From Lysobacterales bacterium (GTDB taxonomy: Bacteria > Pseudomonadota > Gammaproteobacteria > Xanthomonadales > SZUA-5): a stretch of DNA of 64,000 nt. Position numbers and translations under genes: made by a program. Where the stretch lies: NCBI GenBank assembly GCA_022844165.1, contig JALHMH010000019.1, forward strand, positions 20,740 to 84,739. Direction: 5' to 3'. Positions 30,000 through 50,644 of the stretch are shown here, in pieces. The notes beneath the pieces were generated by a model, which worked only from the letters and a program-made list of their open reading frames with translations, was not told where the DNA came from and made no database searches. Position 1 is the first letter of the stretch, and the number at the start of each line of letters is the position of its first letter.

Positions 30000-30680
30000 T
30001 CAATAGAAGGCAACTTTTCGGCAGTGTACCCAACCCGTCCCAACAAGCAGCAACAGGCTCACGACAACTTGTGTTGTCAGAATGACGATTGCCGCCGAAC
30101 TGAAGATAATCGCTTCGCCCCGGATCACGCCGTGAATGGACTCGATCTGGGATAGACCCATCATGAACGGATTGATCATGACCATGCTGGCGATCATCAC
30201 AAAGATGTTCCAACCTTCGGATTCCACGGCCATCGCTACGCTGAGCGCTACACAGTAAGCGAGCAAAATATGGCCAAAGATCAGCAACGAATAGACCACC
30301 AGACCATCGGGCAATGGCGTGAGCAAAATGGCCGCGAGCGTGCCGATCAAAATGACTAAAAACGGCACTGCGAAGGTCACCAGATTGCCGATCAGTTTAG
30401 CGAGGTAGTAGTCGAGCGGCGCTATGGGCAGGCTCATGACGAATGCCAGGTTGTGCTCCTTGCGTTCGTTGATCAATGAGGTCGATATCGCGAAGCAGGA
30501 CGTTGCGACGAGCACGATGATCAGCAACAGCGAGCCGATGTAAAACGACCAGGGTCTGGCCATGCCAAGTAAACACAAAGACAAGATGCCCGTGAGCACA
30601 TACGCGGCCATTTGCTTCTGGAACAACAACCAGTCCTTGGCGATCAGTCGTTTGATGACAGGAACATTGAGCGAATTCAT
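30000..30680 (-). CDS. ABC-2 type transporter permease
   Basis: LIAKDW, ERKEHNLAFVMSLPI...YYLAK, six hydrophobic segments; ATGA overlap with the ATPase. Confidence 0.82.
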   Translation of the reverse strand: MNSLNVPVIKRLIAKDWLLFQKQMAAYVLTGILSLCLLGMARPWSFYIGSLLLIIVLVATSCFAISTSLINERKEHNLAFVMSLPIAPLDYYLAKLIGNLVTFAVPFLVILIGTLAAILLTPLPDGLVVYSLLIFGHILLAYCVALSVAMAVESEGWNIFVMIASMVMINPFMMGLSQIESIHGVIRGEAIIFSSAAIVILTTQVVVSLLLLVGTGWVHCRKVAFY

Positions 30681-31552
30681 GCGGGTGCTCCAGCGCGTAC
30701 GGTGGTGACGAAAATGTCTTCCAGGCGCATCGGGTCGACGCTCTGCACCGTCAGTCCGTGCGCCGCCAGTCGCGCCGGCAACTCGCCACAAAAATCGCGC
30801 ACTTTGAGCTCGAGCACAGAACCATTACGTCGTGCCGCGGCGATCTCCGGCCACTCCGGTGTGTAGTCGCCGAAACAAACGATGCGCCGCCAGTCGTCGA
30901 GGAAACGCTCCTTGTCCTGTGAGGCGATCAGTCGGCCCTGGTGCAAAAAGCTGATCGAATCGGCGAGTTGTTCCACATCGTGCGTGTTGTGCGACGAAAA
31001 CAGTACGCTGCGCGTTTCATCGCGCAGTACATCGGAGAGCACTTCGAGCACCTCGCTGCGTGCGACGGGATCCAATCCGGTGGTTGGCTCATCCAGCAGC
31101 AACAAACGGGGTCGACGCGCAAAACACAACAGCAGCAGCGCTTTGACCCGTTGGCCATGCGAAAAGCCGCCGATCGACTGGTCGCTTTTCAAATCGAAGC
31201 GGCGCAACAGATCGCGCGCATAGTTTTCGTCCCAGCCTGGATAAATCGCCGCGATCAAATCCATGTGCCAGCGCAAAGTCTGGCTCTTGTAAAGGCGCAT
31301 GTCTTCGGAGGCGAATCCAGTATCGGCTTTGACCGCGACCTGATCCTCGGGCATGCGCAGTCCCAGAACCCGAACGTCTCCCCGATCGGCACGTACCAGG
31401 CCGGTCAGAATGCGTAGCAGCGTGGTTTTGCCAGCGCCATTCACTCCAACCAGTCCCATGATCTGGCCGTGTGGCAAGCTCAAACTGATGTCGCTTAGCG
31501 TGAACTGCGGGTACTGTTTGTGAATGCCTGTCAGGGCGAATGCCACAGTCAT
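30677..31552 (-). CDS. ABC transporter ATP-binding protein (YtrB-like)
   Basis: Walker A GVNGAGKTT, signature FSHGQ, LLLLDEPTTGLDP, SSH. Confidence 0.92.
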   Translation of the reverse strand: MTVAFALTGIHKQYPQFTLSDISLSLPHGQIMGLVGVNGAGKTTLLRILTGLVRADRGDVRVLGLRMPEDQVAVKADTGFASEDMRLYKSQTLRWHMDLIAAIYPGWDENYARDLLRRFDLKSDQSIGGFSHGQRVKALLLLCFARRPRLLLLDEPTTGLDPVARSEVLEVLSDVLRDETRSVLFSSHNTHDVEQLADSISFLHQGRLIASQDKERFLDDWRRIVCFGDYTPEWPEIAAARRNGSVLELKVRDFCGELPARLAAHGLTVQSVDPMRLEDIFVTTVRAGAPA

Positions 31553-31935
31553 GGCATGACTCCTTTGTCCGGGCCCGCGTCGAGCAGGCGTTGAATTTCG
31601 TGTGTATCGAGGCCCAGCTGGGCCGCGCAACCCAGGAATGCTTGCAAGTGCCGGTGCATCTCGGCGCGCAACAGCGCGCGGGGCAAGTCGTGCGAGGCAG
31701 CCACGAACGAGCCCTTGCCGTGGCGCGTGACGATGACGCCGGCATGCTCCAATTCGAGATAGGCGCGTTTGACTGTGATGACGCTGACATGACTGCTCGA
31801 CGCCAGTTCGCGGATCGATGGCAGTGGGTAACCCGCAGGCCAATCGCCCAGCATGACTTTGGTCGAAATCTGATCGACGATTTGCCGATACATCGGCCGG
31901 TTATCGTTTTCAGACAGGAAGAGGGCGTCGCTCAC
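31549..31935 (-). CDS. GntR family regulator, YtrA subfamily
   Basis: PMYRQIVDQI, LPSIRELA...VSVITVKRAYLELE, GKGSFV, short C-terminus; GTG start. Confidence 0.88.
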   Translation of the reverse strand: MSDALFLSENDNRPMYRQIVDQISTKVMLGDWPAGYPLPSIRELASSSHVSVITVKRAYLELEHAGVIVTRHGKGSFVAASHDLPRALLRAEMHRHLQAFLGCAAQLGLDTHEIQRLLDAGPDKGVMP

Positions 31936-31976
31936 TGTGCATTCTTTGTATATCTCATATGCACAGTATGCACAGT
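31934..31976. promoter_or_regulatory. Putative YtrA-type autoregulatory operator
   Basis: ACTGTGCAT (31934-31942) is inverted relative to tandem ATGCACAGT x2 (31959-31976); internal TGTATAT-CTC-ATATGCA. Confidence 0.55.
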
Positions 31977-32012
31977 CTACTTCCTGGCCGTCAAGCGGGT
32001 CCCTGGAAACCG

Positions 32013-32705
32013 TCAAACCAGCCGCAGGTGGCCGGCCGACACAGTCAATGTGTCTTCGTGGTTCTTGACGAGCAGGCGTCCCAGGCCGTCCACACCTTGC
32101 GCCGTTCCTTGAAAACGATCGTCCACTCGCACCGTGCGACCAAAGAGCGCATCGCGTGCAGGCCAAAGGTTGGCAAAAGGCGCAAAGCCGCCAAGATCGA
32201 ACAGCGGCAGGGCAGCTTCCAGGGCACGCAACACGTCGGTCAATGCGGCGTCGCGGTCTGTTGAGGCGACAACGTCTAATCCGCTGGCTGGTTGATCGAT
32301 GCCGGTTGGCGTCTTGAGATTAATCCCGAAACCGATCAGTGCGGTCGCAGGGCTGCCGATCAGTTCGATCAGAACGCCACCGAGTTTCTGATCATGGATG
32401 ACGAGATCGTTTGGCCACTTGACCAATACGCTCGGGTGCAAAGCCGTCGCTAACGTCATTCCAACGACGAGCGAAAGACCGCTCATTTGTCCGGCCGTGC
32501 GCGTGAACGGCCAGATCAACGTGCAGGCGATTGACCCGGCAGGAATCGTGTGCCATGTGCGGCCATGCGTGCCGCGCCCCGCGGTCTGGCGATCGGTCAC
32601 GATGGCGCGAGGTTCTCTGCCGTGCGTTTGCAAACGTGCATGGGCTAAGGTCTGTGTGGAATCCACTTCATCGAATCGCTCGATGATCACAGGAATGTGC
32701 TCCAT
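32013..32705 (-). CDS. birA: Biotin--[acetyl-CoA carboxylase] ligase without HTH
   Basis: VDSTQ, QTAGRGTHGRTW, KWPNDL, KLGGVLIE, GFGIN. Confidence 0.9.
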   Translation of the reverse strand: MEHIPVIIERFDEVDSTQTLAHARLQTHGREPRAIVTDRQTAGRGTHGRTWHTIPAGSIACTLIWPFTRTAGQMSGLSLVVGMTLATALHPSVLVKWPNDLVIHDQKLGGVLIELIGSPATALIGFGINLKTPTGIDQPASGLDVVASTDRDAALTDVLRALEAALPLFDLGGFAPFANLWPARDALFGRTVRVDDRFQGTAQGVDGLGRLLVKNHEDTLTVSAGHLRLV

Positions 32706-32806: not shown

Positions 32807-33439
32807 TCATCGCCAAAACAAGCGACCGATGACGCGTACGCGCTCAAAGCGATTCTCGTTGCCGTTGACAACTCGTACGATATTGCTGCGGTGTGTGTAG
32901 GTCAGAAGCAGGGCGGCGCTGATCGCAAGTGCCAGCAGCGTCGCGCTGTCGCCGGCAAGAAAAACCAATAGCGGAAAACAGAGCCCGGCAATGACGGTCG
33001 CCAATCCAACATAGCCAGAACTCATCAAGACCAAAACCCATATGGCCAACATGGCGAGAGCCAGCCAGGGCATGATCAGCGTAATGCCACCGATCAAAGT
33101 GCCGGCACCTTTGCCGCCGCGAAAGCCGTGGAAAACCGGATAACAGTGGCCGACCGCGGCCATGAATGCGCAAGCCAGCGCAATCTCTGCGGGCGCCATC
33201 ATTGGGGTGCCCAGCGGAAGTTGCGCGATCAGGCCTGCGGCAATCAGTCCTTTGCCCACATCGATCGCCATCGTGCCCAGCGCAAATGCCTTGCCTTGTG
33301 TTCGCAGGGCGTTGGTGGCCCCAGCATTACCACTGCCAGCAGTGCGGATATCAACCCCTCTGAGTTTGCCGATCACCAGACTGCCGACGATGCTGCCGAG
33401 CAGGTACGACAGCAACAATTTTGCGAGCAAATCGATCAC
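32807..33439 (-). CDS. plsY: Glycerol-3-phosphate acyltransferase PlsY
   Basis: SYLLGSI, DIRTAGSGNAGATNALR, DVGKG, GHCYPVF.GFRGGKG, HRSNI.R; GTG start overlaps the upstream stop. Confidence 0.94.
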   Translation of the reverse strand: MIDLLAKLLLSYLLGSIVGSLVIGKLRGVDIRTAGSGNAGATNALRTQGKAFALGTMAIDVGKGLIAAGLIAQLPLGTPMMAPAEIALACAFMAAVGHCYPVFHGFRGGKGAGTLIGGITLIMPWLALAMLAIWVLVLMSSGYVGLATVIAGLCFPLLVFLAGDSATLLALAISAALLLTYTHRSNIVRVVNGNENRFERVRVIGRLFWR

Positions 33440-35256
33440 ATTCGTTGTAATCCGACCACCAGCGATCCTGGGCCAGCGTGCACGCCAATCGCTGGCCCAG
33501 TTTCGACGACCCATAATTTTGTCAGGCCTGGCAAGCGTTCACGCAGCGCGCCGGCGAGCGCCGCGGCATCATTGCTGGCGTCGCAATGGCCAACGGTGGC
33601 GCGACAGGCGCAGCCCGGCGGGTTTTGGCGCGCAACAATGTCGGCAAAGCGTTCCACCAGATTCTTGGTTCCCATCAGCGCACGAAAGGGCTTGACGAAA
33701 CCGTTTTTGTTGGCGATCAGCACGGTCAATCCGAACCAGTCGGCAATACGTTTGGCCAGGGGCGGTAACCTGCCGCCGCGGACGCCGAAACTCAGATCAC
33801 GGATCAGTGCGAAAGTTCGCGTATCGGCCATCGCGCGCTCGACGACGCGTCGGACGCCGCTTTCGTCGGCGCCGATCAATGCAGCTTCCGCCGCGGCGAT
33901 TGCGATCAGCCCTTGGCCTGCAGATGCGTTGCGTGTGTCGATGACGTGGATGCGCGCCTTGGAAGTTTCGCGCGCGGCCGCGAGCGCCGCTTGGAATGTC
34001 CCAGAAAGTCGACTCGATAGCGATACCGAGACAATGTGTTCGGCGTGCGCCAGTACCAGATCATAGCTACGGCGAAAATCGCCCGGCGGCGGCTGAGATG
34101 TCCGAACCTTGTCTGCGCTTTGGCGCAGGCGCTGATACAACTCGCGAGGGCTCATCGTAACGCGATCGAGGAAATCGTCGTTACCGATGTTGATGCGCAC
34201 GGGCACCACCGTGATGCCCAGGCGCTCGGCTTCCGAGGAGGGCACGTCACCGGCAGAGTCCACGACGATTCGCACCTTCTGCGTGGGTGCGGCTCGGAGT
34301 CTCGATTGGGCTTGCATGTCGTCAGCTTTGCGTTGCGTGACTTCGCCGAGTTCCCCGAGCGCGGCGAACAGCGCGTTGGGCTGATCAATATGCGCATGCA
34401 CGCGAACGCGATCGCGACCACCGGCGACGACCATTGAATCCAGGGGTAGCGATGCCAGTGTGGCGCGAACTCGCTCCGGCGTGAGGGATGTTCCCCCAAC
34501 CATGCACTCGGTGCAGTATCGATACTGGCTGGCCGCTTCTACCGATTCGAGGTGAACAGAGGCATGCCCCTCTGCGAAGTCGCGCAAATCATCGTCCAGG
34601 CGCAGGGCACTTCGTCCGTGCTGGATGAAGTCCTCGACGCCCTCGAGAAAATCGACGAAACCGGCCGCACCGGCGTCGACCACGCCTGCAGCGCGCAGAA
34701 CCGGCAGCTGATTGGGCGTATTGGCCAAAGATTGGCGGGCGCGACCAAGGCTGGATCGAAACATGGCGGTGATATCGCGCACGCCGGCTTCGGATTGCGA
34801 CCGAAGTTCCGCTGCAAAATCGGTCATCACACTGAGCATCGTTCCTTCGCGAGGATCGGCGATGCAGCGCCGAGCCGATGCGGCCGCTTCGTTCGCAGCG
34901 CGCGCAATTTGCGTCGCACTCACATGAGTGCTGGCTACGCTCTCTGACAGACCTTGAAAAAACTGCGCCAAGATGGCGCCGGAGTTGCCGCGTGCGCCGT
35001 CAACAGCTTCTCTGGCAACGTGTTTCAAAACGGTCTCGACATTACCGCCACGTAATCTTTTCACAACCGAGAGAACCGATTGCATCGTGAACGCAAGGTT
35101 GGTGCCGGTATCGCCATCGGGAACCGGGAAGACATTGATGCGGTTCAGATGTTCTCGACGCTTCAACACGCGAGCTGCGCCAGCAATCAAGGCGCCTTTG
35201 AGCCGCGCACCGTTGAGCTGATCAAGATTGGCAGGAGAGAGGACTAAACTGGACAT
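33436..35256 (-). CDS. DAK2 (FakA-like)-DegV (FakB-like) fusion, putative fatty acid kinase
   Basis: N-terminal LNRINVFPVPDGDTGTN, GARGNSG, EGTMLSV, GVVDAG, YCTE, HAH; C-terminal DegV VDSAGD, TSQPPPGDF, LSGTFQ, GGRL, GVHAGPG. Confidence 0.88.
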   Translation of the reverse strand: MSSLVLSPANLDQLNGARLKGALIAGAARVLKRREHLNRINVFPVPDGDTGTNLAFTMQSVLSVVKRLRGGNVETVLKHVAREAVDGARGNSGAILAQFFQGLSESVASTHVSATQIARAANEAAASARRCIADPREGTMLSVMTDFAAELRSQSEAGVRDITAMFRSSLGRARQSLANTPNQLPVLRAAGVVDAGAAGFVDFLEGVEDFIQHGRSALRLDDDLRDFAEGHASVHLESVEAASQYRYCTECMVGGTSLTPERVRATLASLPLDSMVVAGGRDRVRVHAHIDQPNALFAALGELGEVTQRKADDMQAQSRLRAAPTQKVRIVVDSAGDVPSSEAERLGITVVPVRINIGNDDFLDRVTMSPRELYQRLRQSADKVRTSQPPPGDFRRSYDLVLAHAEHIVSVSLSSRLSGTFQAALAAARETSKARIHVIDTRNASAGQGLIAIAAAEAALIGADESGVRRVVERAMADTRTFALIRDLSFGVRGGRLPPLAKRIADWFGLTVLIANKNGFVKPFRALMGTKNLVERFADIVARQNPPGCACRATVGHCDASNDAAALAGALRERLPGLTKLWVVETGPAIGVHAGPGSLVVGLQRM

Positions 35257-35570
35257 GCGAACGGAGCATAGTCAACAGCGGCGCCGTTTGGTTGTTGCGC
35301 TGCAGCGAAATGCCAGGCGTGGCGTTGTCTGGCGTACGTTGAGGCGGGAATGCATGTCGCCATGTTTGTCATGCGCCCGGTGGCGAAACCTCAATTGAGT
35401 GTCCGTCTGCGGACAGGGCCGGACACAAGCGGACGATGCCTGGCTCGCAATAGCGCGTCTTCACGTCGGCTGGCAGTGCGATCGCTAGTCTCTGGACGTC
35501 GGGTGTGCGATCGTGTTGATGGCATGGAACATGCGTATCGTCAGTCAGGACTTGCCGGATGAATAGGGTC

Positions 35571-35759
35571 ATGAGAACGAAAAAGCGAGTGGCTTGGGCC
35601 TGCCTCGGCCTGTTAGCGGGTTTCGGGATTCTGGGATTGGCGCAACCAGAATCGTCGGAAGTCTCGATTGTGCCGTCCGTCGAGTTTGAGTTGCACGCTG
35701 GCGACGGCGAACCATTCGTATCGGGTTGGGATGGGTTGCTGCCGGGTTCACTCAAGTGA
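35571..35759 (+). CDS. Possible small secreted protein
   Basis: Signal-peptide-like start MRTKKRVAWACLGLLAGFGILGLAQ followed by a short acidic segment; no other ORF occupies this space. Confidence 0.35.
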   Translation: MRTKKRVAWACLGLLAGFGILGLAQPESSEVSIVPSVEFELHAGDGEPFVSGWDGLLPGSLK

Positions 35760-36008
35760 TTCGATGAGGTCGGCTTTCTGCAGGTCTGCCATCAGGCGGT
35801 TGAAGTCTTCGCTCACCACGGATGGTTCGGCTTCGTATCGATCCAGCACGGCGGCGATAGCCGCTTGTGCGCTGCCACCGGCCAGCAAAGATTGCAGCAT
35901 CAATGTGCCTGTGGCATTGAGATCGAAGTAGGTCCCTTTGCCCACGTCCAGCAGTACGGTCTCTCCCGAGATCACTTGGCAAACGACACCCGATTTGAGT
36001 TTGATCAT
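35748..36008 (-). CDS. PqqD-family RiPP recognition element (lasso B1/E protein)
   Basis: 86 aa; GETVLLD...GTYFDLNATG...RYEAEP.VV.ED...LMADL.KADLI. Confidence 0.9.
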   Translation of the reverse strand: MIKLKSGVVCQVISGETVLLDVGKGTYFDLNATGTLMLQSLLAGGSAQAAIAAVLDRYEAEPSVVSEDFNRLMADLQKADLIESLE

Positions 36009-36385
36009 TGCGAACTCGTGGCGAAGGGAACTTTTGTCAGTATCGCCAATCGCGCCAGGCGTTCGCCAGATTCATCCAACGCTTCACCACTGGCGACAAC
36101 CCAGGCGTGGGCCATCAATTGGCCAGAATCGCGTTCCGCCCCAAGGACCAGTTCACACGCAACACCACTTTCGCGAAGCAGAGATGCCAGTACCAATGAC
36201 TGGTGCAAGCAACGGCTGCCCGGCCAGAATCGGCCGATTCGATGCACCCGTCGCGCCAATCGTACCGGATCGAGCCGAGAATGTCGGCGTGGTCTTTCTT
36301 TCAGCGCAATGCAAGCCGCATCGAAACCCTTGGATCGCAACAGGCGATCGACAGCAAACATGCACCAGAGCACTTTGGCGTTCAT
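36005..36385 (-). CDS. Lasso peptide leader peptidase B2 (transglutaminase-like)
   Basis: SRCLHQSL (Cys) and LMAHAWV (His) motifs, 126 aa; ATGA overlaps on both sides. Confidence 0.88.
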   Translation of the reverse strand: MNAKVLWCMFAVDRLLRSKGFDAACIALKERPRRHSRLDPVRLARRVHRIGRFWPGSRCLHQSLVLASLLRESGVACELVLGAERDSGQLMAHAWVVASGEALDESGERLARLAILTKVPFATSSQ

Positions 36386-37125
36386 GCCAAAGCCGAGAGA
36401 ACCGATGCCGCAGCAGCCGTAGGGTCGTCGGGCATGTGCGGCGCAACGATGTTCAGGGCAGCAATCGAATTGGACTCGACCGCAGCGGCAACACCTGCGG
36501 CCAACGCCAGATGCGCCGCTAACGCCCGTGGCGAATACAGTCGCGAGGCAAGCGAATGTTGCAGTATCCAGCGACATACTTGACTCGGTGCGGCTGGTTC
36601 ACAACTCAAAGCACTGCCGCGGGTCAGGAGCGCCAGGCGTCTGATCGGCAAGCTCGGGCCACGGTACTGCTCCTCTTCCGACAACTTGAGCTGCCGAAAC
36701 TGAGGGTGGGCCTCGATCAGCTCAGCGCGCATTGCGACCGGCAGAACGTCATCGGCGATTCGCGCGCCCTCATTGGCCGCAAGGCGCGCGACTGTGGACT
36801 TACCAGCCCCGGATTCGCCGAGAATGGCACAGACGCCAAAATCGCAGGCAATCGCCGAGGCATGCAGGGCGAATACGGAGCGTTCTGCAAGCCACATCAT
36901 GCTCGCCGGTCCAAGCAGCACCTCGTCCCAACGATCGTCGTCATCGCAGCGTCGAGCGACTTCGATGCCCAAAGGTGTCACCGACAAAGCGCCGAATGCG
37001 CCGAGATCCAGGAATGCCGTCTCGCCATCCCACCGAAGTCGCCCGCTGACGGGTGTGTCGCGCAAAAGGCCTTCGACGCGCTGACAGGGGGAAACGTCGA
37101 ATGCCTCGCGCGTGGACAGCTGCAA
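36382..37125 (-). CDS. HPr-kinase-like P-loop kinase (putative lasso precursor kinase)
   Basis: LLGP...ALHASA, Walker A GESGAGKST, IADD. Start uncertain (TTG); the frame is open only to 37197. Confidence 0.8.
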   Translation of the reverse strand: MQLSTREAFDVSPCQRVEGLLRDTPVSGRLRWDGETAFLDLGAFGALSVTPLGIEVARRCDDDDRWDEVLLGPASMMWLAERSVFALHASAIACDFGVCAILGESGAGKSTVARLAANEGARIADDVLPVAMRAELIEAHPQFRQLKLSEEEQYRGPSLPIRRLALLTRGSALSCEPAAPSQVCRWILQHSLASRLYSPRALAAHLALAAGVAAAVESNSIAALNIVAPHMPDDPTAAAASVLSALA

Positions 37126-37264
37126 TTGAAACGAACAGGCGGGGAGGTAGCTCAGCGTGACCAGAGTCCTTGACGGAGTGGAATCGGGACAGATGACTCA
37201 AATTTCGACGAAGCAGCTTCGGCTCTTCAAGCTCTCTTGCATCAAGAGAGGGCGCCGCGTTCGG

Positions 37265-37332
37265 CGGGGCTTCGGCATGTACACTGCCGAGCGAAGCCAA
37301 CCGTGTTTGTCAGTCCGAGGCGAAGCCTCGCT
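37265..37332 (+). repeat. Dispersed intergenic repeat, copy B (diverged)
   Basis: GGCATGTAC...GCGAAGCCAAC...GTCCGAGGCGAAGCCTCGCT aligns to copy D; preceded by the hairpin CTCTCTTG-CAT-CAAGAGAG. Confidence 0.7.
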
Positions 37333-37338
37333 GGAGTT

Positions 37339-37509
37339 CTACCGACGTTGCGTCCGTGGGCTGCCCGAATCACCGGTTCCCAAAGAGCCGCCGAGTGTTA
37401 AGTCGCGAATGTCGCCCAGCACGCGCAGTTCTGGCGCGACGTAAGCAGCGCGATGCACCGGCACTTGCTGCGCGGAGCCTTGCGATTGACAAAAGTCGTT
37501 GAGGGTCAT
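37339..37509 (-). CDS. Lasso peptide precursor (56 aa; predicted core GGSLGTGDSGSPRTQRR)
   Basis: Leader motif YVAPELRVLG (YxxPxLxxxG), Thr at -2 (DLTL|G), core Gly1 with Asp8; AAGG RBS before ATG 37509; lies between cyclase and kinase. Confidence 0.88.
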   Translation of the reverse strand: MTLNDFCQSQGSAQQVPVHRAAYVAPELRVLGDIRDLTLGGSLGTGDSGSPRTQRR

Positions 37510-37543
37510 GCTGCGCCTTCGAATAACCGGATTCCCAATCTTC

Positions 37544-37572
37544 ATGTTAGTGATAGTCGGTTGACGATGCAA
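37544..37572 (-). promoter_or_regulatory. Sigma70-like promoter for the precursor gene
   Basis: TTGCAT (37572-37567), 17-nt spacer, TAACAT (37549-37544). Confidence 0.5.
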
Positions 37573-37615
37573 GCGCGGTACTTCTCGATATTCACTTGAA
37601 AAGCAACGATTTGCG

Positions 37616-39289
37616 CTATTTGATTCGTGTCGCCTGCCAAAGGCCGAAAGCGCTCAACAACCAAATCAGCAGCAATCCGTCGTCTTCGTCCAGTGAAAAT
37701 GCTCCATCCACGGTCTCCGGGTCGATGAAAGCCTCCCATTGCTGGCGACCGCAGTTGACCAGTTCGCGCACCGAGGGCATGGACTTTTGCAGGGCGTCGC
37801 GCAGATAAGGTGTCAGGTCCGCTGACTTTGGACGAACCCGCCATGTGTCCGGCAACGCATTTCGGCACGCTTCGCGCTGCAGCCATTTGTCTACACCGTA
37901 ACGCCAGGTTTTATCCGTCGGCAAGCTCAGCATAAGCTGCACCAATGGCCAGTGACGGTAGGGTTGTCTGACTTCGATCCCGAATCGATCGGCGAAATAG
38001 CACTCGGCGGCATCGCCTGCGGCGTAGGCTCCGAGCGCCTGTGCGGCCTGGTCAGGGCGTGGCCAGCCGGCGAATTGTTCGAGTATTGCCGATCGAGCCT
38101 TTTCGCGTTCTTGCCGCAATTCTGGGCGCAGCCAGTCGATACGGTGGTGAGCCTTCCAGTTGAGCTGTCGGCGCACGAATCCACGCCAGCCGCGATCGCG
38201 CCACAGCATCCCAGGTCCTTGCGCAATAAAGTACCGGATGGTTGCGCCAATTTCTCGCCAGCGGCGTCCGCGCAGCGCATCGTCGAGCCAGTAATAGTGG
38301 CCCGCATTGAGGTGGTCCGCAAAATTGCCGTTCAAAACGACATCGACGCCCTGTTCGCGCCAAAGCGCGTAGGCCTGCGTCTTGATTTCGCGATAAGGCG
38401 TGGCGCTGGGTTCGTCAGGGTGCGCCTCGCGCGCAGAACCGCCGAGCGGCGAGAATGCGTTGGCGTCGATCTGGATGCTCTGAAGGTTGAACTGCGATGC
38501 CAACGCGCTCGCCCATGGCCGTTCGTCGCTGTCTGGAAACCGCGAAGAACCGTAGGTGAGTGCACAGACATCGACATCTCTCAGCAAGGGCACCAGCGCA
38601 CTCGAATCCAGGCCACCACTGAGACTTAACCCGACGCGTTTTGTCCCCTGACATGCCTCATTGATCGCCGCACGAAACGCCGCGCGATAGCGCTCGATCG
38701 TTTCGGCATCGCTCCAGCGGAAAGCGCCGTCGATCGCTGTAGATGTCGCCCATGTGGTCGATTCGCCATGCGCCGTCAGTGCGAGGCTCGATCCCGCCGG
38801 AACCAGGCGCACGCCACAAAACACGCTGGCATGCGCTTCAGGGATCTGCGCCGAAAAGAAGTCGGCCAGATATGCTGGGCTCAAGCTGCTGTCGACGTCG
38901 GGGTGTTCGGCGAGGATGGCGTCGCCCGAGGCGACCAGCATGCCACCGGACAGTCGCGCGAAACATAGTGGCCTTTGACCCAGGCGATCGCGACTGAGTT
39001 GAATCGAATTGGGTTCGATCAGCGCCAGTGCAGCCGCGCGATCGGGCGAGCGATCGAAGACTTGGAAGGGCTGCTCGCAATCCTGAAGCAGCCAGCGGTC
39101 GGCATCCAGCCGCACCAGCGGCGGATGCGAGTTCAATCGAGTTTGGATCGCCAGTATGTATCGACCTGGCGCTGTCAGCTCAAAAGTCTTGCCAGCGGCA
39201 CGCGCCAATGCCTGCGACCTGAGCCTGCCAAGAATCGCCGGGTCGATTTCGCGGCCCGCGAAATCGACCCAGGCGAAAAGTACCGCCAT
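37616..39289 (-). CDS. Asparagine-synthetase-like lasso cyclase (C protein)
   Basis: SRDRLGQRPL, ATP motif LSGGLDSS, EVRQPY, DKWLQREA...LP...RPK; lacks the N-terminal glutaminase Cys (starts MAVLF). Confidence 0.85.
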   Translation of the reverse strand: MAVLFAWVDFAGREIDPAILGRLRSQALARAAGKTFELTAPGRYILAIQTRLNSHPPLVRLDADRWLLQDCEQPFQVFDRSPDRAAALALIEPNSIQLSRDRLGQRPLCFARLSGGMLVASGDAILAEHPDVDSSLSPAYLADFFSAQIPEAHASVFCGVRLVPAGSSLALTAHGESTTWATSTAIDGAFRWSDAETIERYRAAFRAAINEACQGTKRVGLSLSGGLDSSALVPLLRDVDVCALTYGSSRFPDSDERPWASALASQFNLQSIQIDANAFSPLGGSAREAHPDEPSATPYREIKTQAYALWREQGVDVVLNGNFADHLNAGHYYWLDDALRGRRWREIGATIRYFIAQGPGMLWRDRGWRGFVRRQLNWKAHHRIDWLRPELRQEREKARSAILEQFAGWPRPDQAAQALGAYAAGDAAECYFADRFGIEVRQPYRHWPLVQLMLSLPTDKTWRYGVDKWLQREACRNALPDTWRVRPKSADLTPYLRDALQKSMPSVRELVNCGRQQWEAFIDPETVDGAFSLDEDDGLLLIWLLSAFGLWQATRIK

Positions 39290-39290
39290 A

Positions 39291-41768
39291 TCAGAACCGG
39301 TAGTTCACGGTCAGCCCATATTGGCGCTTGCGCGGTGGCGTGATGACGAAATCGCGCGGGTTGACGAGCGTCGTCGGTGCAGCTGGCGCTGGCAGTACAT
39401 TCGGCACCGCGATAAACAGCGCCGGATTCACATAGCGCAGAATATCTTCGGGCGTGTCGTCGTCGGTAGCATTGCGGACGAACACCGAAACTTCCCAATT
39501 GTCGCCAATCGACAGGCCGCCGCGCAGGTTCACGAGCGTGGAGTCGCCCGTCTCCAGGAGATTGTCCACCTGGGCGAATCGGGAGCTCTCGTAGTTGGCG
39601 TCGCCGCCGATGTACCAGTCCCAGCCGTTGTCCAGTGTGGCGGAGTAGGTCAACCCCAAACCGGCTTGGTGCTTGGGCACGCGCGGGAGTTCGGCGCCGC
39701 GTGCATTGGCGCAGGCTTGAGTTAAGTTGACTGCATTTGCGCCGCAGAACAGATCTGCCTGGTCCTGGCTGGCGAAATTCTTGATCTCGCTGTCCTGCAG
39801 CGCATAGGTCGCGCGCAGATTCCAGTTCTCGTCGATCAACCAGTCTGCCTCAAGCTCCAGGCCCGTGACTTCAGATTGGCCAAGATTCGAGGTAAACGAG
39901 GTAATGAATATGCCGCCATCGACTCGTGGGGTTGGGCGCGTCTCCGTCAGCTGCTGGTTGTCCCAGTCGATGCGGTAAAGCGCCGCGTTGAGCGTCAGGC
40001 GATTGTCGAGCCACTGCGATTTGACACCCAACTCGTAGGTCCATGCTTCCTCTTCATCGAACACATCAAGGCCTTCAGCCAACAGCGCAGCGCGGCCGGT
40101 TTCGGTCAAGATCGAGGATTCGACCGCGGTGTTGAATCCGCCCGGTTTGTTGCCTTTTGCGGCAAGCCCATAAATGCTCACATCATCAGAGATCTCATAC
40201 CGCAGCGTGCCGCGAGGCAGGAAGTTATCGAAGGTCGCCGACTTGTTGAAATCGCGCACAAAGGTCGTCGGGCGACCCGCGACAGTGAGCGTGTTCGTTG
40301 AGCGCCCGACAATGTCGATCTCGTCCTCGGCGTAACGCGCTTCGAGCGTTCCTGTCAAACGGTCGGTGAAGTCGAATTCGACCAGAGCGAACAGCGCCTG
40401 ATTGGTGATTTCGAGCCCTGGGCGCGTCGGGTTCTGGACGGGCCGCGTTCGACTGAAGGCCGGTGGCAGATTGAAGCCGCCGAGGTTTGCACTCCAGCCG
40501 TCCAACGCTTTTTCGTTGTAGTGGTAATAGCCGAACTGTCCCCGCAGACGCGCATCTTGATCGGTCGCGACGCGGAATTCCTGGCTCCAGTCGCGCTGGC
40601 GACCGAAGTCGATGGTCTCGAAGGCGCCGTTGAAACCGCGTACGCTGGAGAAATCCTGGTCGATCGCGCTATAGGATTCGGTGGCGTTGTAGGCACTCGT
40701 CGAGGTAAACGACCAGCCGTTGTCGAAGGCGTAGTTGCCTTGCAAACTGGTGCGGATGTTCTCGCGCTCCAGGCCCGGTTCGAAACCGGCGAGGCGAAAC
40801 TGATCGGTGTTGATCGCATAGATATCCGGTTGCGAAGCGGTGCCGCACAAATAACCACGGGTGCGGGTTTGCATGCGCACGGCGCCGGCGAACGTGCCGC
40901 CGGCTGGGACCGGCAAGAAGCAATTGTTGAAGCCGTTCACGTCGCTCGCGGGTAAGCCATTGGCTACGCGATTGAGCGGATCGCCGAGCCGGCCGATCGC
41001 ATAGTGCTCGTCTTGATCTTCGGCGTAGTTAAAGCGCAATGTGAAGTCGAGCTTGTCGGTGGGCGTCAGGAAAAATGCGCCACCCGCGCTTGCAGTTTTT
41101 TGTCCGCCGAGGTCGCGGATGCCGGTGACCGCATTGCGATATTGGCCGCCGAATTCGTAAAAGCGGACATTGCCCTGGAAGGACAGCAAATCGTCGACGA
41201 TCGGACCCGCGTAGTTGCCGGCAAATTCGCGCTCGGAATCGCTGGCAATCGTCATCGACAACTTGCCCTCAGGTGTGCTGGCTGGTTTGCGCGTGATGAA
41301 ATTGATGGCGCCGGAAAATGTGCGGCGACCGAATAGCGCAGACTGCGGGCCGCGAATGACTTCGACCTGTTCGAGGTTGTCCAGGCCGTAGCCGGAAATA
41401 TTGCCATTGACGAACACGCCATCAATGAAGAACGCGGCATTCGCTTCGCCCTGGATATTCGATTGGCCTCGAATGACGGGTCGGTCACCCTCGCGGCCGA
41501 AGCCTGAACGGAACGAGAAACCTGGCGTATAGCGCGCGATGTCGTTGATGCGCTCAAGACCGCGGCGTTCGATGGTCTGCTCGTCGATCACCGATATCGA
41601 TAGCGGGACCTCTTGCAGCGATTCTTCGACTCGGCGCGCCGTGACCTTGATCGCGTCGAGTTCGACGGCCTCTTCCTGCGGATCGTTTTGCGCAACGGCG
41701 CCGAACGGCAACGCCGCGCCCAATAGCGCGCCAATGGCCAGCGACAAACGGGACGGTTTGAATTTCAT
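39291..41768 (-). CDS. TonB-dependent receptor
   Basis: Signal peptide, TonB box IKVTARR.EESLQEVP, plug IRGPQSALFGR, GNKPGGFN, terminal YRF; stop lies 1 nt before the cyclase ATG. Confidence 0.93.
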   Translation of the reverse strand: MKFKPSRLSLAIGALLGAALPFGAVAQNDPQEEAVELDAIKVTARRVEESLQEVPLSISVIDEQTIERRGLERINDIARYTPGFSFRSGFGREGDRPVIRGQSNIQGEANAAFFIDGVFVNGNISGYGLDNLEQVEVIRGPQSALFGRRTFSGAINFITRKPASTPEGKLSMTIASDSEREFAGNYAGPIVDDLLSFQGNVRFYEFGGQYRNAVTGIRDLGGQKTASAGGAFFLTPTDKLDFTLRFNYAEDQDEHYAIGRLGDPLNRVANGLPASDVNGFNNCFLPVPAGGTFAGAVRMQTRTRGYLCGTASQPDIYAINTDQFRLAGFEPGLERENIRTSLQGNYAFDNGWSFTSTSAYNATESYSAIDQDFSSVRGFNGAFETIDFGRQRDWSQEFRVATDQDARLRGQFGYYHYNEKALDGWSANLGGFNLPPAFSRTRPVQNPTRPGLEITNQALFALVEFDFTDRLTGTLEARYAEDEIDIVGRSTNTLTVAGRPTTFVRDFNKSATFDNFLPRGTLRYEISDDVSIYGLAAKGNKPGGFNTAVESSILTETGRAALLAEGLDVFDEEEAWTYELGVKSQWLDNRLTLNAALYRIDWDNQQLTETRPTPRVDGGIFITSFTSNLGQSEVTGLELEADWLIDENWNLRATYALQDSEIKNFASQDQADLFCGANAVNLTQACANARGAELPRVPKHQAGLGLTYSATLDNGWDWYIGGDANYESSRFAQVDNLLETGDSTLVNLRGGLSIGDNWEVSVFVRNATDDDTPEDILRYVNPALFIAVPNVLPAPAAPTTLVNPRDFVITPPRKRQYGLTVNYRF

Positions 41769-41888
41769 GGCAAATCCTCTCGTTGGGTGAGCCGCGTTGC
41801 GCGCGCATACGCGGGGTAAAAACACTATAACATCTGTCATTTGTGTCGCTTGTTGTGCCGATTGGCACCGCGCAGCGATCTGTTTCGA

Positions 41889-43301
41889 CTACAGAATTCC
41901 TGCGATGTTGACCGCAGCACGTTCGCCGCTCGATAGCGCGGCTTCGATGCCTGGCGCATCGAAAACCATATGTTCGCCGGCGAAGGCCAGCCGCGGATTG
42001 CGTTTGGCGAAACCGGGTAATTCCGATAACGCAGCCTTCACCGCCTGCGCCTGACCCGCCGTCACTTCGGCGTAGGCGCCACCAATCGTCGGCATCTGCG
42101 CCCAGTGCACGGTATGCAACACTTCGACTTTTCCTTTCGATGCCGGACGAATCCTCGCCAGCTCCAGGTGCACGAACGTGCCGAGTTCGTTGCCCAGGCG
42201 CGACGCCCGAATCGCGCCCTGGCCATTCAGCCAGACGATTAGTCGCTCGACATCGCCGTTCGCGTTGCGTATGGCGAAGACCCGCTCCAAAGCCCCATCG
42301 CACCACATCGTCGCCGGCAACCCATCGTCCTGCCAGAAGGGTGCCAGCGGCCGCAGATGAACTTGCGTAATCGCGGTCATCGGTCGTGCTCGCCAGAGCG
42401 CGGCAACCGAATCGATCCCCGTGACATCGACGAAGCCGATAGCATCGGTGCGCGAACACGGTACAGCAACAATGACCGCGCGTGCATTCACCCGACCGCC
42501 GTCGGCGAGCTTGATCAGACACCCGCGCCGTCGTTGTTCGATGGCGATTACCGCGGCGCCAAGACGCACTCGATCGCCCAGCTGACGCGCCATCGCGTCC
42601 GGTAGCTGCGAGCTGCCGCCGTCGAGCGTCTTGACGCCGCCCGCGGCGCCCGCGTCCTTGCGCATCGCATCGCGCCGCAGCGCATCCAGTGCCGACGTGC
42701 TGTGCAGCGCGTTGTAGTTGGCACCAACATCCGCCAACGCCAGTACGTCTGCAGGCGCCCCATGGTCGCGCAAGAATGCGTGCAGCGACACATCCAGGTG
42801 ATTGTGCTGGTCCAGTTGCCAATCCGCAGATTGTGTCAGAAGGTTATGTTGCTGCATCAGGCCGCCGAGCAGCGTGGGTGGCAATTGCATGCGCCACGGC
42901 TCGATCAGCGTATTGGCGCCAGCTGTGGGCCAGGCGGCTGCGTCGATCAGTTCATCGCCGATGCACAACGTCAGCTCGCGCGAAGGCGGAGCGCCGGGGG
43001 TACTGAGTTTCAAACCCAACGCTGCGATACGCGCCTGGCATCGCGCATACGAATCTGCGAATTCAACAGCGCCTGTTTCAAATCGCAGACCGCCGCTGCT
43101 GATCGTCCGCAAACGCCCGCCAACGCGCTCGCTCGCCTCAAAAACGCGTACGCTGGCGCCTTGCTCTGATAACCTCAGCGCCGCTTCCAGCCCGGCCAAT
43201 CCTGCGCCGACGATGGCCACATCGATCCGCCCGGTGCTGGCGTGCGTCGCGCCAGCCAGAGTGGCCAGCGCGATTCCGCTCAGACACTCGCGGCGACGCA
43301 T
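41889..43301 (-). CDS. Tat-exported flavin monoamine/L-amino acid oxidase family protein
   Basis: MRRRECL Tat-like signal, VAIVGAGLAGL, EASERVGGR, FAGEH...GIEAALSSGERAA. Confidence 0.82.
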   Translation of the reverse strand: MRRRECLSGIALATLAGATHASTGRIDVAIVGAGLAGLEAALRLSEQGASVRVFEASERVGGRLRTISSGGLRFETGAVEFADSYARCQARIAALGLKLSTPGAPPSRELTLCIGDELIDAAAWPTAGANTLIEPWRMQLPPTLLGGLMQQHNLLTQSADWQLDQHNHLDVSLHAFLRDHGAPADVLALADVGANYNALHSTSALDALRRDAMRKDAGAAGGVKTLDGGSSQLPDAMARQLGDRVRLGAAVIAIEQRRRGCLIKLADGGRVNARAVIVAVPCSRTDAIGFVDVTGIDSVAALWRARPMTAITQVHLRPLAPFWQDDGLPATMWCDGALERVFAIRNANGDVERLIVWLNGQGAIRASRLGNELGTFVHLELARIRPASKGKVEVLHTVHWAQMPTIGGAYAEVTAGQAQAVKAALSELPGFAKRNPRLAFAGEHMVFDAPGIEAALSSGERAAVNIAGIL

Positions 43302-44179
43302 CAGGGCGCCTCGTTCGACTTCTGATCAAGTACCCTGGCCTTGTAAACCGTCCAGCTGGTGGCGTTGGGCTGTGTCCACTCTTTGGGCGCCGTTAAGTAC
43401 TCAGGCGCATTCTTCTCAATATAGGCCTTGAAGGTTTCGGGTAACTCAGCCACGCCGCCCATCAGCTTCTTGCCATAACCCGAGTAGATGAGAAGGCCAG
43501 GGCGGTCGCCCATTTCCATCCAGGGTAGCCAGGGCGCTTCGCGGAACCACGCGATCGAGATCGGTGCACTCGTGGTCTTCGGATTCGCGAGTTCGTCCAT
43601 ACGAGCATAAAAGCCGAAGTGTTCGGATCCGACGTACGTCGCGCCGGTCGAATGCAGCGGGAATTGCTCTGGCGAAATTGGGTTCGGATAAGCCAACGGC
43701 ACGTCCAGGCCCAGGATGACGTCGTTGCCATGTCGCTTCAGCGGCAACAGGCGAACAGGCGCGCCGTCTTTCGCCGGCGCGCCGCCGAAATTGTTGTTGA
43801 CCGGATCGTTTTGCACATGGAAGACCTTGACGTCCGACTGCGTCCACGGATTGGCCCAGGTCTCGAGAATCTCTCCACTCCGTGGATCTTTATAGACGGC
43901 GTATTCGCGAGACAACATCCGCCAGTTGCCATCTTCGGTCTTTTCAATACGAGCGACATTCATGCCTTCGAAACCGAACAACAATTTCGGACGTTCGTCC
44001 GGCACGGCGGCAAACACCTGACCGGTCCACCAGGTGACCGTGTCGGAGCCGTCGAGACTGGCCCGCATCTTCAGAAAGGCCGTGAGATTGTCGTCGGGAT
44101 TCGACAGGTCCAGATCCTTGGCAGTGGCGACCGATGCCACGGCCAGGGTTAACGCGAAAAAGACACCTCGCAAACGCAT
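43301..44179 (-). CDS. Secreted DUF1838-like protein
   Basis: Signal peptide; WWTGQVFA, LFGFEGMNV, YKDP.SGEILETWANPWT, V.HVQNDPVN, PWLPWMEMGDRPG, P.YL.AP, TSW..Y. Confidence 0.72.
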   Translation of the reverse strand: MRLRGVFFALTLAVASVATAKDLDLSNPDDNLTAFLKMRASLDGSDTVTWWTGQVFAAVPDERPKLLFGFEGMNVARIEKTEDGNWRMLSREYAVYKDPRSGEILETWANPWTQSDVKVFHVQNDPVNNNFGGAPAKDGAPVRLLPLKRHGNDVILGLDVPLAYPNPISPEQFPLHSTGATYVGSEHFGFYARMDELANPKTTSAPISIAWFREAPWLPWMEMGDRPGLLIYSGYGKKLMGGVAELPETFKAYIEKNAPEYLTAPKEWTQPNATSWTVYKARVLDQKSNEAP

Positions 44180-44226
44180 CGTCCGATCACTCCGCTCAGG
44201 TCGAAGCACACATCATAACCAGCGAG

Positions 44227-44252
44227 CGAAAATTTGTCCGGACAAATTTTCG
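44227..44252. promoter_or_regulatory. Perfect 26-bp palindrome, probable repressor operator
   Basis: CGAAAATTTGTCCGGACAAATTTTCG is its own reverse complement; 47 nt upstream of the DUF1838-like start; core TTGTCCGGACAA is GntR-like. Confidence 0.7.
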
Positions 44253-44442
44253 AGGACAAGTCCATGCTCTGGCCATTTGGCGTGGCGCGCTTTCGGTCAT
44301 TTGCAGAGAACGATCAAGACGAGCAAAAAATGGGAGTATGACGCGGGGGGGTGAGGATCGGCGCTTACACGCCGCAAGGCGTGTAAGCGCCGAACGACCG
44401 GCGGCTGTGCCGCCTGGCCGGAAATGTGCGCAGCGCTCAATG

Positions 44443-44509
44443 GGGGGTGTGGCAAGTACGGTGTCGGGCGAAACCAGAATCGCTCGGCGGTCTGAGGCGA
44501 AGCTTGGCT
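44443..44509 (+). repeat. Dispersed intergenic repeat, copy C
   Basis: TGTGGCAAGTACGGTGTC and GCTCGGCGGTCTGAGGCGAAGC are identical to copy D. Confidence 0.85.
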
Positions 44510-49735: not shown

Positions 49736-50644
49736 GTGAAACGTCTGAAAGAAGTGCTGCTATCGATATTCGTGGGTTCGCTTTGGGTCGTCACCGCGGC
49801 GCAAGCGCAAAGTGCGCAGCCCAACCTGAGCGTCACGGAGTTCCACTACACGCAGAGCAGCGCCAGTGCGCTCGATCTTCGTCCCGGGCCATACCTGCTC
49901 GAACTTCGGCGGCAATCCGATGGTAGCCACCTCGGCCGTCTGCGCGGTCCGCGCAACGAATGGGTGGCAGAATCGCTGCAATTCGTCGGTTCGGTGTGTC
50001 CCGGCAGCACGCTCAGTATCGCCCCCCTGGCTGGAGTGCCCTCCAGCAATGGCGTTCGACTGGTACTAAATGCAGGCAATGCGTGCCGTGCAGAAGCTAT
50101 GTTGCCGATTCTGGGTTTGACGTCTATCAACGTGACCCACGGCGAGCCCCAATGTGATCCGATTGAAGAGGTCGCTGGCTTGTTCTCTTCCAACGACGGT
50201 CCGGCGTGCTCGGTAGAGGAAGAACCAGAATTGCCGATTGCAATTGCCAAGCCGGATCTAAAACCCGGGCCGCGCATCACCATCGGCTCGCGTACTTTTT
50301 TATGGCCCGATCGTGTGGTCCTGGATGCCAGCCGCGCAGTTGCCAAGGTCAACGGTCGCTGCATTTTTGATTATGGTTATGAGATCGAGAATCGCGGCCG
50401 CGTGACGTCGACTCCGACCGACGCTAGCCTGCTGCTGGATCAACGACTTGGATTGCAGTTGGATCGGCGTGCCCTGGCTTCCATCAGCCCTGGCGCTATA
50501 CAACGCGTGTCGGGTCAATTCGCTTTGCCGACCGGGCGTTGGTTGATATTGGCGCACGCCGATGCCGACGATCGAGTTGGCGAATGGGCTGGCCGCAACA
50601 ATGTCCGCGCTTTGCGTATCCAGGTAACCGGGGACTGCGGTTAG
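49736..50644 (+). CDS. Secreted protein with C-terminal CARDB/Ig-like domain
   Basis: AGGAG RBS plus GTG, signal peptide ending AQA; C-terminal KPDL...IENRG...ADADDRVGE...NN. Confidence 0.7.
   Translation: MKRLKEVLLSIFVGSLWVVTAAQAQSAQPNLSVTEFHYTQSSASALDLRPGPYLLELRRQSDGSHLGRLRGPRNEWVAESLQFVGSVCPGSTLSIAPLAGVPSSNGVRLVLNAGNACRAEAMLPILGLTSINVTHGEPQCDPIEEVAGLFSSNDGPACSVEEEPELPIAIAKPDLKPGPRITIGSRTFLWPDRVVLDASRAVAKVNGRCIFDYGYEIENRGRVTSTPTDASLLLDQRLGLQLDRRALASISPGAIQRVSGQFALPTGRWLILAHADADDRVGEWAGRNNVRALRIQVTGDCG

Follow-up and report, generated by a model that had tools for sequence, protein, structure and literature searches.

At which residue does a kinase act in a lasso peptide pathway whose precursor has no C-terminal Ser, and why is the ring sequence of that precursor so strongly conserved? 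Both questions are raised by a five-gene cluster on the minus strand (positions 35748–39289) of a 64,000-nt stretch of DNA (hereafter the window) from an uncultured, soil/water-type Lysobacterales bacterium. Reading of the open reading frames (ORFs) gave the order C-A-K-B2-B1, which stands for a macrolactam synthetase, a precursor peptide, a kinase, a leader peptidase and a stand-alone recognition element. The initial annotation had proposed a lasso peptide cluster at this position, and all of its genes were found where it had placed them. At the sequence level, the locus was confirmed as a genuine lasso peptide cluster of class II with a split B protein. The explanation that we favored, with a probability of about 0.6, is that the cluster encodes a functional class II lasso pathway in which the linear precursor is phosphorylated by K, core Ser3 being the most likely site. 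Other genomes were labeled G001, G002 and so on, and their loci L0xx.

The features of a class II lasso cluster with split B were all present, namely a precursor motif, a PqqD-like element for the recognition of peptides that are made by the ribosome and modified after translation (RiPP recognition element, RRE), a Cys/His B2 protein and a cyclase without the glutaminase Cys. Gene C (37616–39289) encoded an Asn-synthetase-like lasso macrolactam synthetase of 557 aa, and its residues 201–551 matched PF00733 (Asn_synthase; E 1.3e-32, 114 bits). In glutamine-dependent asparagine synthetases, a Cys near the N-terminus is the nucleophile. The N-terminus of C was MAVLFAW, and Ala at residue 2 showed that this Cys was absent, as had been annotated; the SGGLDS PP-loop was kept. 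C also matched the NCBIfam lasso cyclase models NF033535 (E 3.4e-26) and NF033561, both far under the cut-offs of these models. Gene B2 (36005–36385) encoded a transglutaminase-like leader peptidase of 126 aa that matched PF13471 (Transglut_core3; E 1.8e-18) and NF033537 (lasso_biosyn_B2; E 2.9e-16, 60 bits, cut-off 33). The Cys/His assignment was borne out by Cys59 and His93, which were invariant in 13/13 B2 sequences of the family. Gene B1 (35748–36008) encoded a stand-alone PqqD-type RRE (PF05402; E 2.5e-14, 53.8 bits, cut-off 23.4), and it matched NF033530 with an E of 3.5e-17, under the cut-off of that model. The last three genes were joined by ATGA overlaps, which were read in the sequence at 36382–36385 (K/B2) and 36005–36008 (B2/B1). 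No Rfam family was matched in a scan of 35000–44500. Four sequencing runs contained the stretch; all were DNA runs of a single study, and no RNA run was listed.

Gene A (37339–37509) encoded a precursor of 56 aa, with a leader of 39 aa and a core of 17 aa, GGSLGTGDSGSPRTQRR. Its residues YVAPELRVLGDIRDLTLG matched NF033521 (lasso_leader_L3; E 3.2e-5, 23.7 bits against the curated cut-off of 19). The leader contained YVAPELRVLG, which gives the pattern Y(-17)xxP(-14)xL(-12), and T(-2)L(-1) preceded the core; the leader motif and Thr(-2) of the annotated precursor were thus both recovered. The longest ORF was a 77-aa form starting at TTG (37339–37572), which encloses the 56-aa ATG form. Two observations supported the shorter form over the longer one: the database gene call (P0027) was 56 aa, and the conservation upstream of the ATG was non-periodic and ended there. 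In the comparison of the window with G001, the mean column identity 5′ of the ATG was 79%, with long identical runs that lacked codon periodicity, and conservation collapsed 3′ of the ATG. This upstream nucleotide conservation also suggests that the C-A intergenic region (37510–37615) holds a promoter and a ribosome-binding site for the precursor. The region contained TTGCAT-17 nt-TAACAT, and AAGG ahead of the ATG; a sigma-70 consensus promoter scan of 35300–43500 called none, the C-A intergenic region included. A hairpin was visible 3′ of the precursor stop (CGAGGCTTCGCCTCG). The A-K spacer folded no better than its shuffles (z -0.36), and a terminator scan called none there.

The codon changes between the window and G001 differed strongly along the precursor. 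The 17 codons of the core showed 11 synonymous and 0 non-synonymous changes, and the 20 codons of the leader recognition-motif region showed 13 synonymous and 2 non-synonymous ones; in the 19 codons of the N-terminal leader, 17 changes were non-synonymous. Between the two species, purifying selection thus acts strongly on both the core and the recognition motif. The pattern was that expected of a translated leader-core peptide under selection. G001 belongs to the same genus, and its contig is likewise labeled Lysobacterales bacterium. Its gene order (amine oxidase, TonB-dependent receptor, C-A-K-B2-B1, FakA) was the same as in the window, at protein identities of 64% for C, 56% for K, 58% for B2 and 61% for B1, and of 100% for the core. 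Because of this synteny and the synonymous-only changes in the core, the five-gene set is more than a chance assembly. No acidic residue other than Asp8 occurred in the core, which leaves a Gly1-Asp8 linkage as the only possible macrolactam; the 17-mer and its ring had been predicted in this form.

A profile search of the protein database (E ≤ 0.001) gave a precursor family of 880 proteins, some of which are named by NCBI as "lasso RiPP family leader peptide-containing protein". Core statistics were based on the best 120 of the 880 matches, 119 of which could be parsed, and on a separate set of 34 cores from genome loci (the window plus 33 others). The ring was almost invariant, GGSxGxGDSG. 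Among the 119 cores, the conserved positions were G1 (119), G2 (114), S3 (118, plus one Thr), G5 (119), G7 (117), D8 (116, plus three Glu), S9 (119) and G10 (115). The core was 17 aa long in 90/119. Its last residue was Phe in 81 and Arg in 13 of the 119 and was never Ser, and the tail variant of the window, ending in SPRTQRR, occurred twice, one occurrence being the window itself. Among the genome-locus cores, position 3 was Ser or Thr in 33/34, Ser9 was kept in 33/34 and a C-terminal Ser occurred in 0/34. In an alignment of 12 precursors, Y(-17), P(-14), L(-12), G, D, R, T(-2), L(-1), G1, S3, G5 and S9 were invariant. The named genome records with the motif (29 loci) were almost all metagenome-assembled genomes of Lysobacterales, Rhodanobacteraceae and Ahniellaceae; further carriers were Thermoanaerobaculia, Myxococcales and Byssovorax cruenta. 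The invariant GDSG of the ring (core at 37339–37392) resembled the motif found in the active site of chymotrypsin-like serine proteases, which is probably a coincidence.

The view that the core is not a described compound held in part. No paper with GGSLGTGDSG, or with GTGDSG and lasso, was found in the full text of open-access PMC and bioRxiv, a range outside which supplements and subscription journals lie, and the core may already appear in tables from RODEO or antiSMASH. Within the same range, BsfK was named in a single paper, and for lasso peptide kinases in Rhodanobacter only an unrelated species description came up. The part that did not stand was its singularity, since the peptide belongs to the family of 880 proteins with some members already named. 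Judged by its sequence, the cluster appears to be an uncharacterized addition to a large and strongly conserved family, and its precursor is less singular than first implied.

The identity of K (36382–37125) needed more than single-sequence matching. Its start was uncertain, either TTG at 37125 or TTG at 37065 with GAAGG before it. The database contained 25 relatives (best E 2e-20), to which two orthologues were added for alignment, and in the alignment of 26 homologues L87, H88, A89, G106, G108, K109, S110, A113 and D126 were invariant and G103 and D125 nearly so; K itself retained His88, Gly103, Lys109, Ser110, Asp125 and Asp126. The best PDB matches of the profile built from these homologues were HPr kinases/phosphorylases (HPrK/P; 1jb1 and 2qmh, E 7e-8; 1ko7, E 1.4e-7), and 16/26 homologues individually matched PF07475 (Hpr_kinase_C). 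An AlphaFold (AF2) model of K had a mean confidence (pLDDT) of 91.7, and the matches listed by Foldseek with this model were all ATP-PEPCK or HprK/P chains (E 2.6e-5 to 1.3e-3). The homologue profile and the predicted fold together supported K as a HPr-kinase-like P-loop kinase, as had been annotated, though K itself falls outside formal membership of PF07475. An Atlas search returned unnamed clusters, with PF07475 and PF27840 (ScmC) at low shares, and was taken as a lead only. A separate and weaker match was located elsewhere in G000 (C33, E 1.4e-7); it is perhaps the housekeeping HprK.

Since K had no family match of its own and a shorter N-terminus than most homologues, it was also considered that the lasso peptide is unphosphorylated and that K serves as a scaffold, a regulator or an immunity protein, or is inactive. 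The genomes of genus g8, in which a lone K homologue lay away from the lasso genes, and the 13/34 family precursor genes that had no adjacent K would fit this explanation. However, K keeps all catalytic residues and is translationally coupled to B2 through the ATGA overlap. It directly followed A in the window and at 20 of the 33 other precursor genes (21/34), and several of the 13 cases without K, at least four (L027, L032, L033, and L046), lay near contig ends. We therefore regarded a K without kinase function as very unlikely.

With an active K, the following pathway is the one that we infer for the cluster. That a stand-alone B1 protein binds the leader is textbook knowledge, and here B1 would bind the 56-aa precursor through YxxPxL. 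K, aided by B1, would then phosphorylate the linear precursor, most likely at core Ser3. B2 would cleave after Thr(-2)-Leu(-1) with Cys59 and His93, and C would adenylate the side chain of Asp8 and join it to the amine of Gly1 to give a macrolactam of eight residues. The tail SGSPRTQRR, nine residues in length, would be threaded through this ring. Export would have to be assumed as well, because the cluster contains no exporter. The predicted product is the 17-mer GGSLGTGDSGSPRTQRR minus water, with a calculated monoisotopic mass of 1669.824 Da; a single phosphate would raise this to 1749.791 Da. The unphosphorylated form corresponds to calculated ions of 835.920 for [M+2H]2+ and 557.615 for [M+3H]3+.

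Ser3 was placed first as the phosphorylation site, with slightly better than even odds, because of the precedents of BsfK and LppK, the Ser or Thr that occupies position 3 of 119/119 and 33/34 cores, and the position of K directly after A. In the same lasso cluster, K might instead act on Ser9, on both Ser3 and Ser9, or add several phosphates at one site. Ser9, which directly follows the ring-closing Asp8, was found in all 119 parsed cores and in 33/34 genome-locus cores, and polyphosphorylation is described for ThcoK, SyanK, LppK and BsfA variants (PMC9266682, PMC10368454, PMC13381572). On the other hand, position 3 is the choice of both characterized kinases with an internal target residue (PMC10368454, PMC13381572), and BsfK is described as strictly regioselective, with the S10A and T11A variants still phosphorylated (PMC10368454). 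Action at Ser9, or at several sites, was thus considered unlikely.

A further question was whether the cluster yields a lasso peptide at all. It could be silent, or give no threaded product and only a linear or branched-cyclic peptide; for the bsf cluster, five hosts are reported to have yielded no mature peptide (PMC10368454), and the tail in the window is small, with nine residues. Against this stood five genes that are all intact with conserved catalytic residues, the strong purifying selection on core and recognition motif between two species, and the retention of the 17-mer length in 90/119 relatives. The odds of a silent or unthreaded outcome were thus rated as poor.

Several points weighed against the favored pathway. 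No product, transcript or phosphorylation has been observed, and bsf, the one cluster that offers a precedent, is silent, its mature lasso peptide reportedly never having been detected (PMC10368454). Domain scans found no nucleotidyltransferase N, exporter D or isopeptidase in or adjoining the cluster, and the lack of D and N does not favor the pathway. Ser9 is as invariant as Ser3, so that conservation alone cannot pick the site. Thr(-2) was present in the leader of the window and in 12/12 relatives, whereas Bsf-type clusters have Ile/Val(-2). For K, the scans of Pfam and NCBIfam gave a Walker A match only, with none to PF07475 at E ≤ 0.01 and TIGR00679 at E 0.28, and K alone gave only P-loop matches among PDB sequences. 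K is thus tied to HPrK through its homologues and through a fold whose Foldseek TM-scores were modest (0.33–0.51, the value of 0.51 being normalized on the HprK chain), and the likeness of K to BsfK was judged from the spacing of conserved residues.

Upstream of C lay a TonB-dependent receptor with plug and barrel domains (39291–41840, minus strand), whose TGA was followed, after 1 nt, by the ATG of C; the two genes are probably co-transcribed. This junction, the conservation of the arrangement in G001 and the lack of an exporter in the cluster would agree with a receptor, perhaps together with the amine oxidase, that is a working part of the system and re-imports the peptide, as proposed for isopeptidase-type clusters, which TonB-dependent transporters accompany (PMC9266682). 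The receptor was 91% identical between the window and G001, which exceeded the identity of any biosynthetic enzyme. However, receptor orthologues with 54% identity occurred in G004, on a contig without C and away from lasso genes, and the orthologue in G028 adjoins an amine oxidase in a genome without any C match. A receptor homologue was found at only 1/32 other family loci, that of G001, and the cluster of G002 kept the FakA neighbor but not the receptor. Because of these distributions, the receptor is unlikely to be a part dedicated to the lasso system, and its adjacency probably reflects local juxtaposition; a role in re-import seemed doubtful.

Other genes around the cluster were also recorded. 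The receptor, a flavin amine oxidase (41889–43301) and a DUF1838 protein (43301–44209) formed one minus-strand run (39291–44209), and the receptor-oxidase pair recurred in the distant 2.4-Mb genome G028. On the other side of the cluster, a single protein of 606 aa (33436–35256) contained Dak2 and FakA-like middle domains and a full DegV domain, that is, a fatty-acid kinase A-type N-terminus fused to a B-type lipid-binding module; it stood beside the lasso cluster in G001 and G002 as well. The closest ABC ATPase (30677–31843) was ~4 kb off, behind three housekeeping genes (BPL, PlsY, and FakA-like). A GntR-like ORF (31549–32166; helix-turn-helix recognized by eye) lay upstream of it, ~4 kb from B1, and no obvious lasso exporter was seen there. 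A Ser/Thr protein kinase of 906 aa with a long array of tetratricopeptide repeats was encoded at 50641–53361.

The genomes of genus g8 showed a different organization. At three loci (L015:4653-11663 in G016, L017:2358-11421 in G020, and L020:4992-16288 in G024), family precursors adjoined a cyclase and were found without K, B2 and B1. In these three of the four g8 loci examined, the precursor and cyclase were flanked by giant proteins (1338–2076 aa) ending in a gingipain-like Peptidase_C25 domain, and in L015 a Peptidase_C25 gene lay between C and A; the remaining locus (L019) had an FG-GAP protein instead. Second, more divergent precursors with the same leader type were located beside second cyclases (L020:14253-14450, L017:8204-8440, and L069:10331-10513), and their cores began GGSPGFGDSS, GGSSGVGDSG and GRSVGVDESG. 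The best matches to K, Transglut_core3 (B2) and PqqD (B1) in G008, G020 and G024 were off the contig with C and A, mostly on separate contigs. The lasso genes look dispersed there; on one contig each of G016 (C2, where a B2 match lies too) and G020 (C8), K stands near a PqqD. The lone K homologue in G020 (L067:6091-6945, contig C4; profile E 2.4e-45) was flanked by an RsmE-type RNA methyltransferase and by an Rrf2/SufB operon and had no lasso genes around it.

Lasso cores generally vary in sequence. The cluster is chiefly of value because it is tractable and represents a very large family in which the ring is conserved to an unusual degree. With a compact operon of five genes, a core of 17 residues and a single possible ring, it is a promising choice for heterologous production, and by its gene content it would extend the split-B, kinase-bearing lasso clusters to Lysobacterales. 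To our knowledge, a mature lasso peptide with a phosphate on a ring residue has so far never been isolated. The GGSxGxGDSG class, whose 880 database members come from Lysobacterales, Thermoanaerobaculia and Myxococcota, also allowed a bolder speculation, which we rate as a long shot. These peptides could be one functionally constrained class of ring-phosphorylated lasso peptides rather than variable antibiotics, in which a nearly invariant ring with phospho-Ser3, Asp8 and Ser9 binds one conserved target or metal and which is recovered, in this genus, through the co-transcribed TonB-dependent receptor. If so, this would be the first lasso peptide with a phosphorylated ring to have a physiological role, as a signal or in a metallophore-like manner.

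K has the same P-loop, DD motif and catalytic-domain fold as HPr kinase/phosphorylase (PDB 1jb1, 1kkl, 1ko7, 2qmh), and likewise a His ahead of the P-loop, but it has a different N-terminal domain and gave no PF07475 match of its own, and its presumed substrate is an RRE-bound peptide and not HPr.

Among lasso kinases, PadeK, ThcoK, SyanK and PsmK act on a C-terminal Ser, whose hydroxyl they phosphorylate; this Ser is described as conserved in all their precursors (PMC9266682, PMC8498205, PMC5067487). In Firmicutes, the genes of paeninodin-type clusters run C A K B1 B2 D (PMC5067487). The proteobacterial order that has been described is A B1 B2 C K D. The proteobacterial lasso systems characterized as of 2016 are reported to have a fused B (PMC5067487). 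The initial annotation had likened the cluster to the paeninodin type, and the likeness was partial. An HPr-kinase homologue with the His-Lys-Asp-Asp set (H88, K109, D125, and D126) and a split B are common to the window, the paeninodin-type systems (PadeK, ThcoK, and PsmK) and the Sphingobium yanoikuyae cluster (SyanK); the C-A-K order is as in Firmicutes, and kinase action on the linear precursor would also be common under the proposed model. The window differs in that B2 precedes B1, in that neither D nor another ABC exporter is present, and in that the core ends in Arg-Arg. Paeninodin-type chemistry was considered and excluded, because the precursor family never has a C-terminal Ser (0/119 parsed cores and 0/34 genome-locus cores). 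BsfK and LppK were closer precedents.

LppK, from the linear phosphorylated peptide (LPP) systems of Bacillota, phosphorylates core Ser3 (PMC13381572). An HprK-like kinase and a discrete RRE are common to LPP systems and the window, whereas the former have a signal-peptidase-like leader peptidase and no macrolactam synthetase, in place of which the window has B2 and C (PMC13381572).

The nearest likeness was to bsf, a cluster from Bradymonas sediminis FA350. There, BsfK places phosphate on Ser3 of a core (BsfA) that ends in Asp, and BsfB1 accelerates the reaction; H148, G163, K169, S170, D186 and D187 of BsfK were shown to be important by mutation (PMC10368454). His88, Gly103, Lys109, Ser110, Asp125 and Asp126 of K correspond in spacing to these residues. 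Bsf, as described, differs in its Ile(-2), its 21-mer core and its phylum from the window, which has Thr(-2), a 17-mer, no N and no ABC exporter D, and neither system has a characterized mature product. Common to both are the split B1/B2, an HPr-kinase-like K beside the precursor, a Ser at position 3 without a C-terminal Ser, and Gly1, Ser3 and Asp8 in the core (BsfA being read from the gene printed in PMC10368454); B1-dependent kinase action is the model adopted for the window. By this analogy, the cluster appears to work like a Bsf-type phosphorylated lasso system that shares only the C-A-K order with the paeninodin clusters, and its peptide is probably phosphorylated on the ring.

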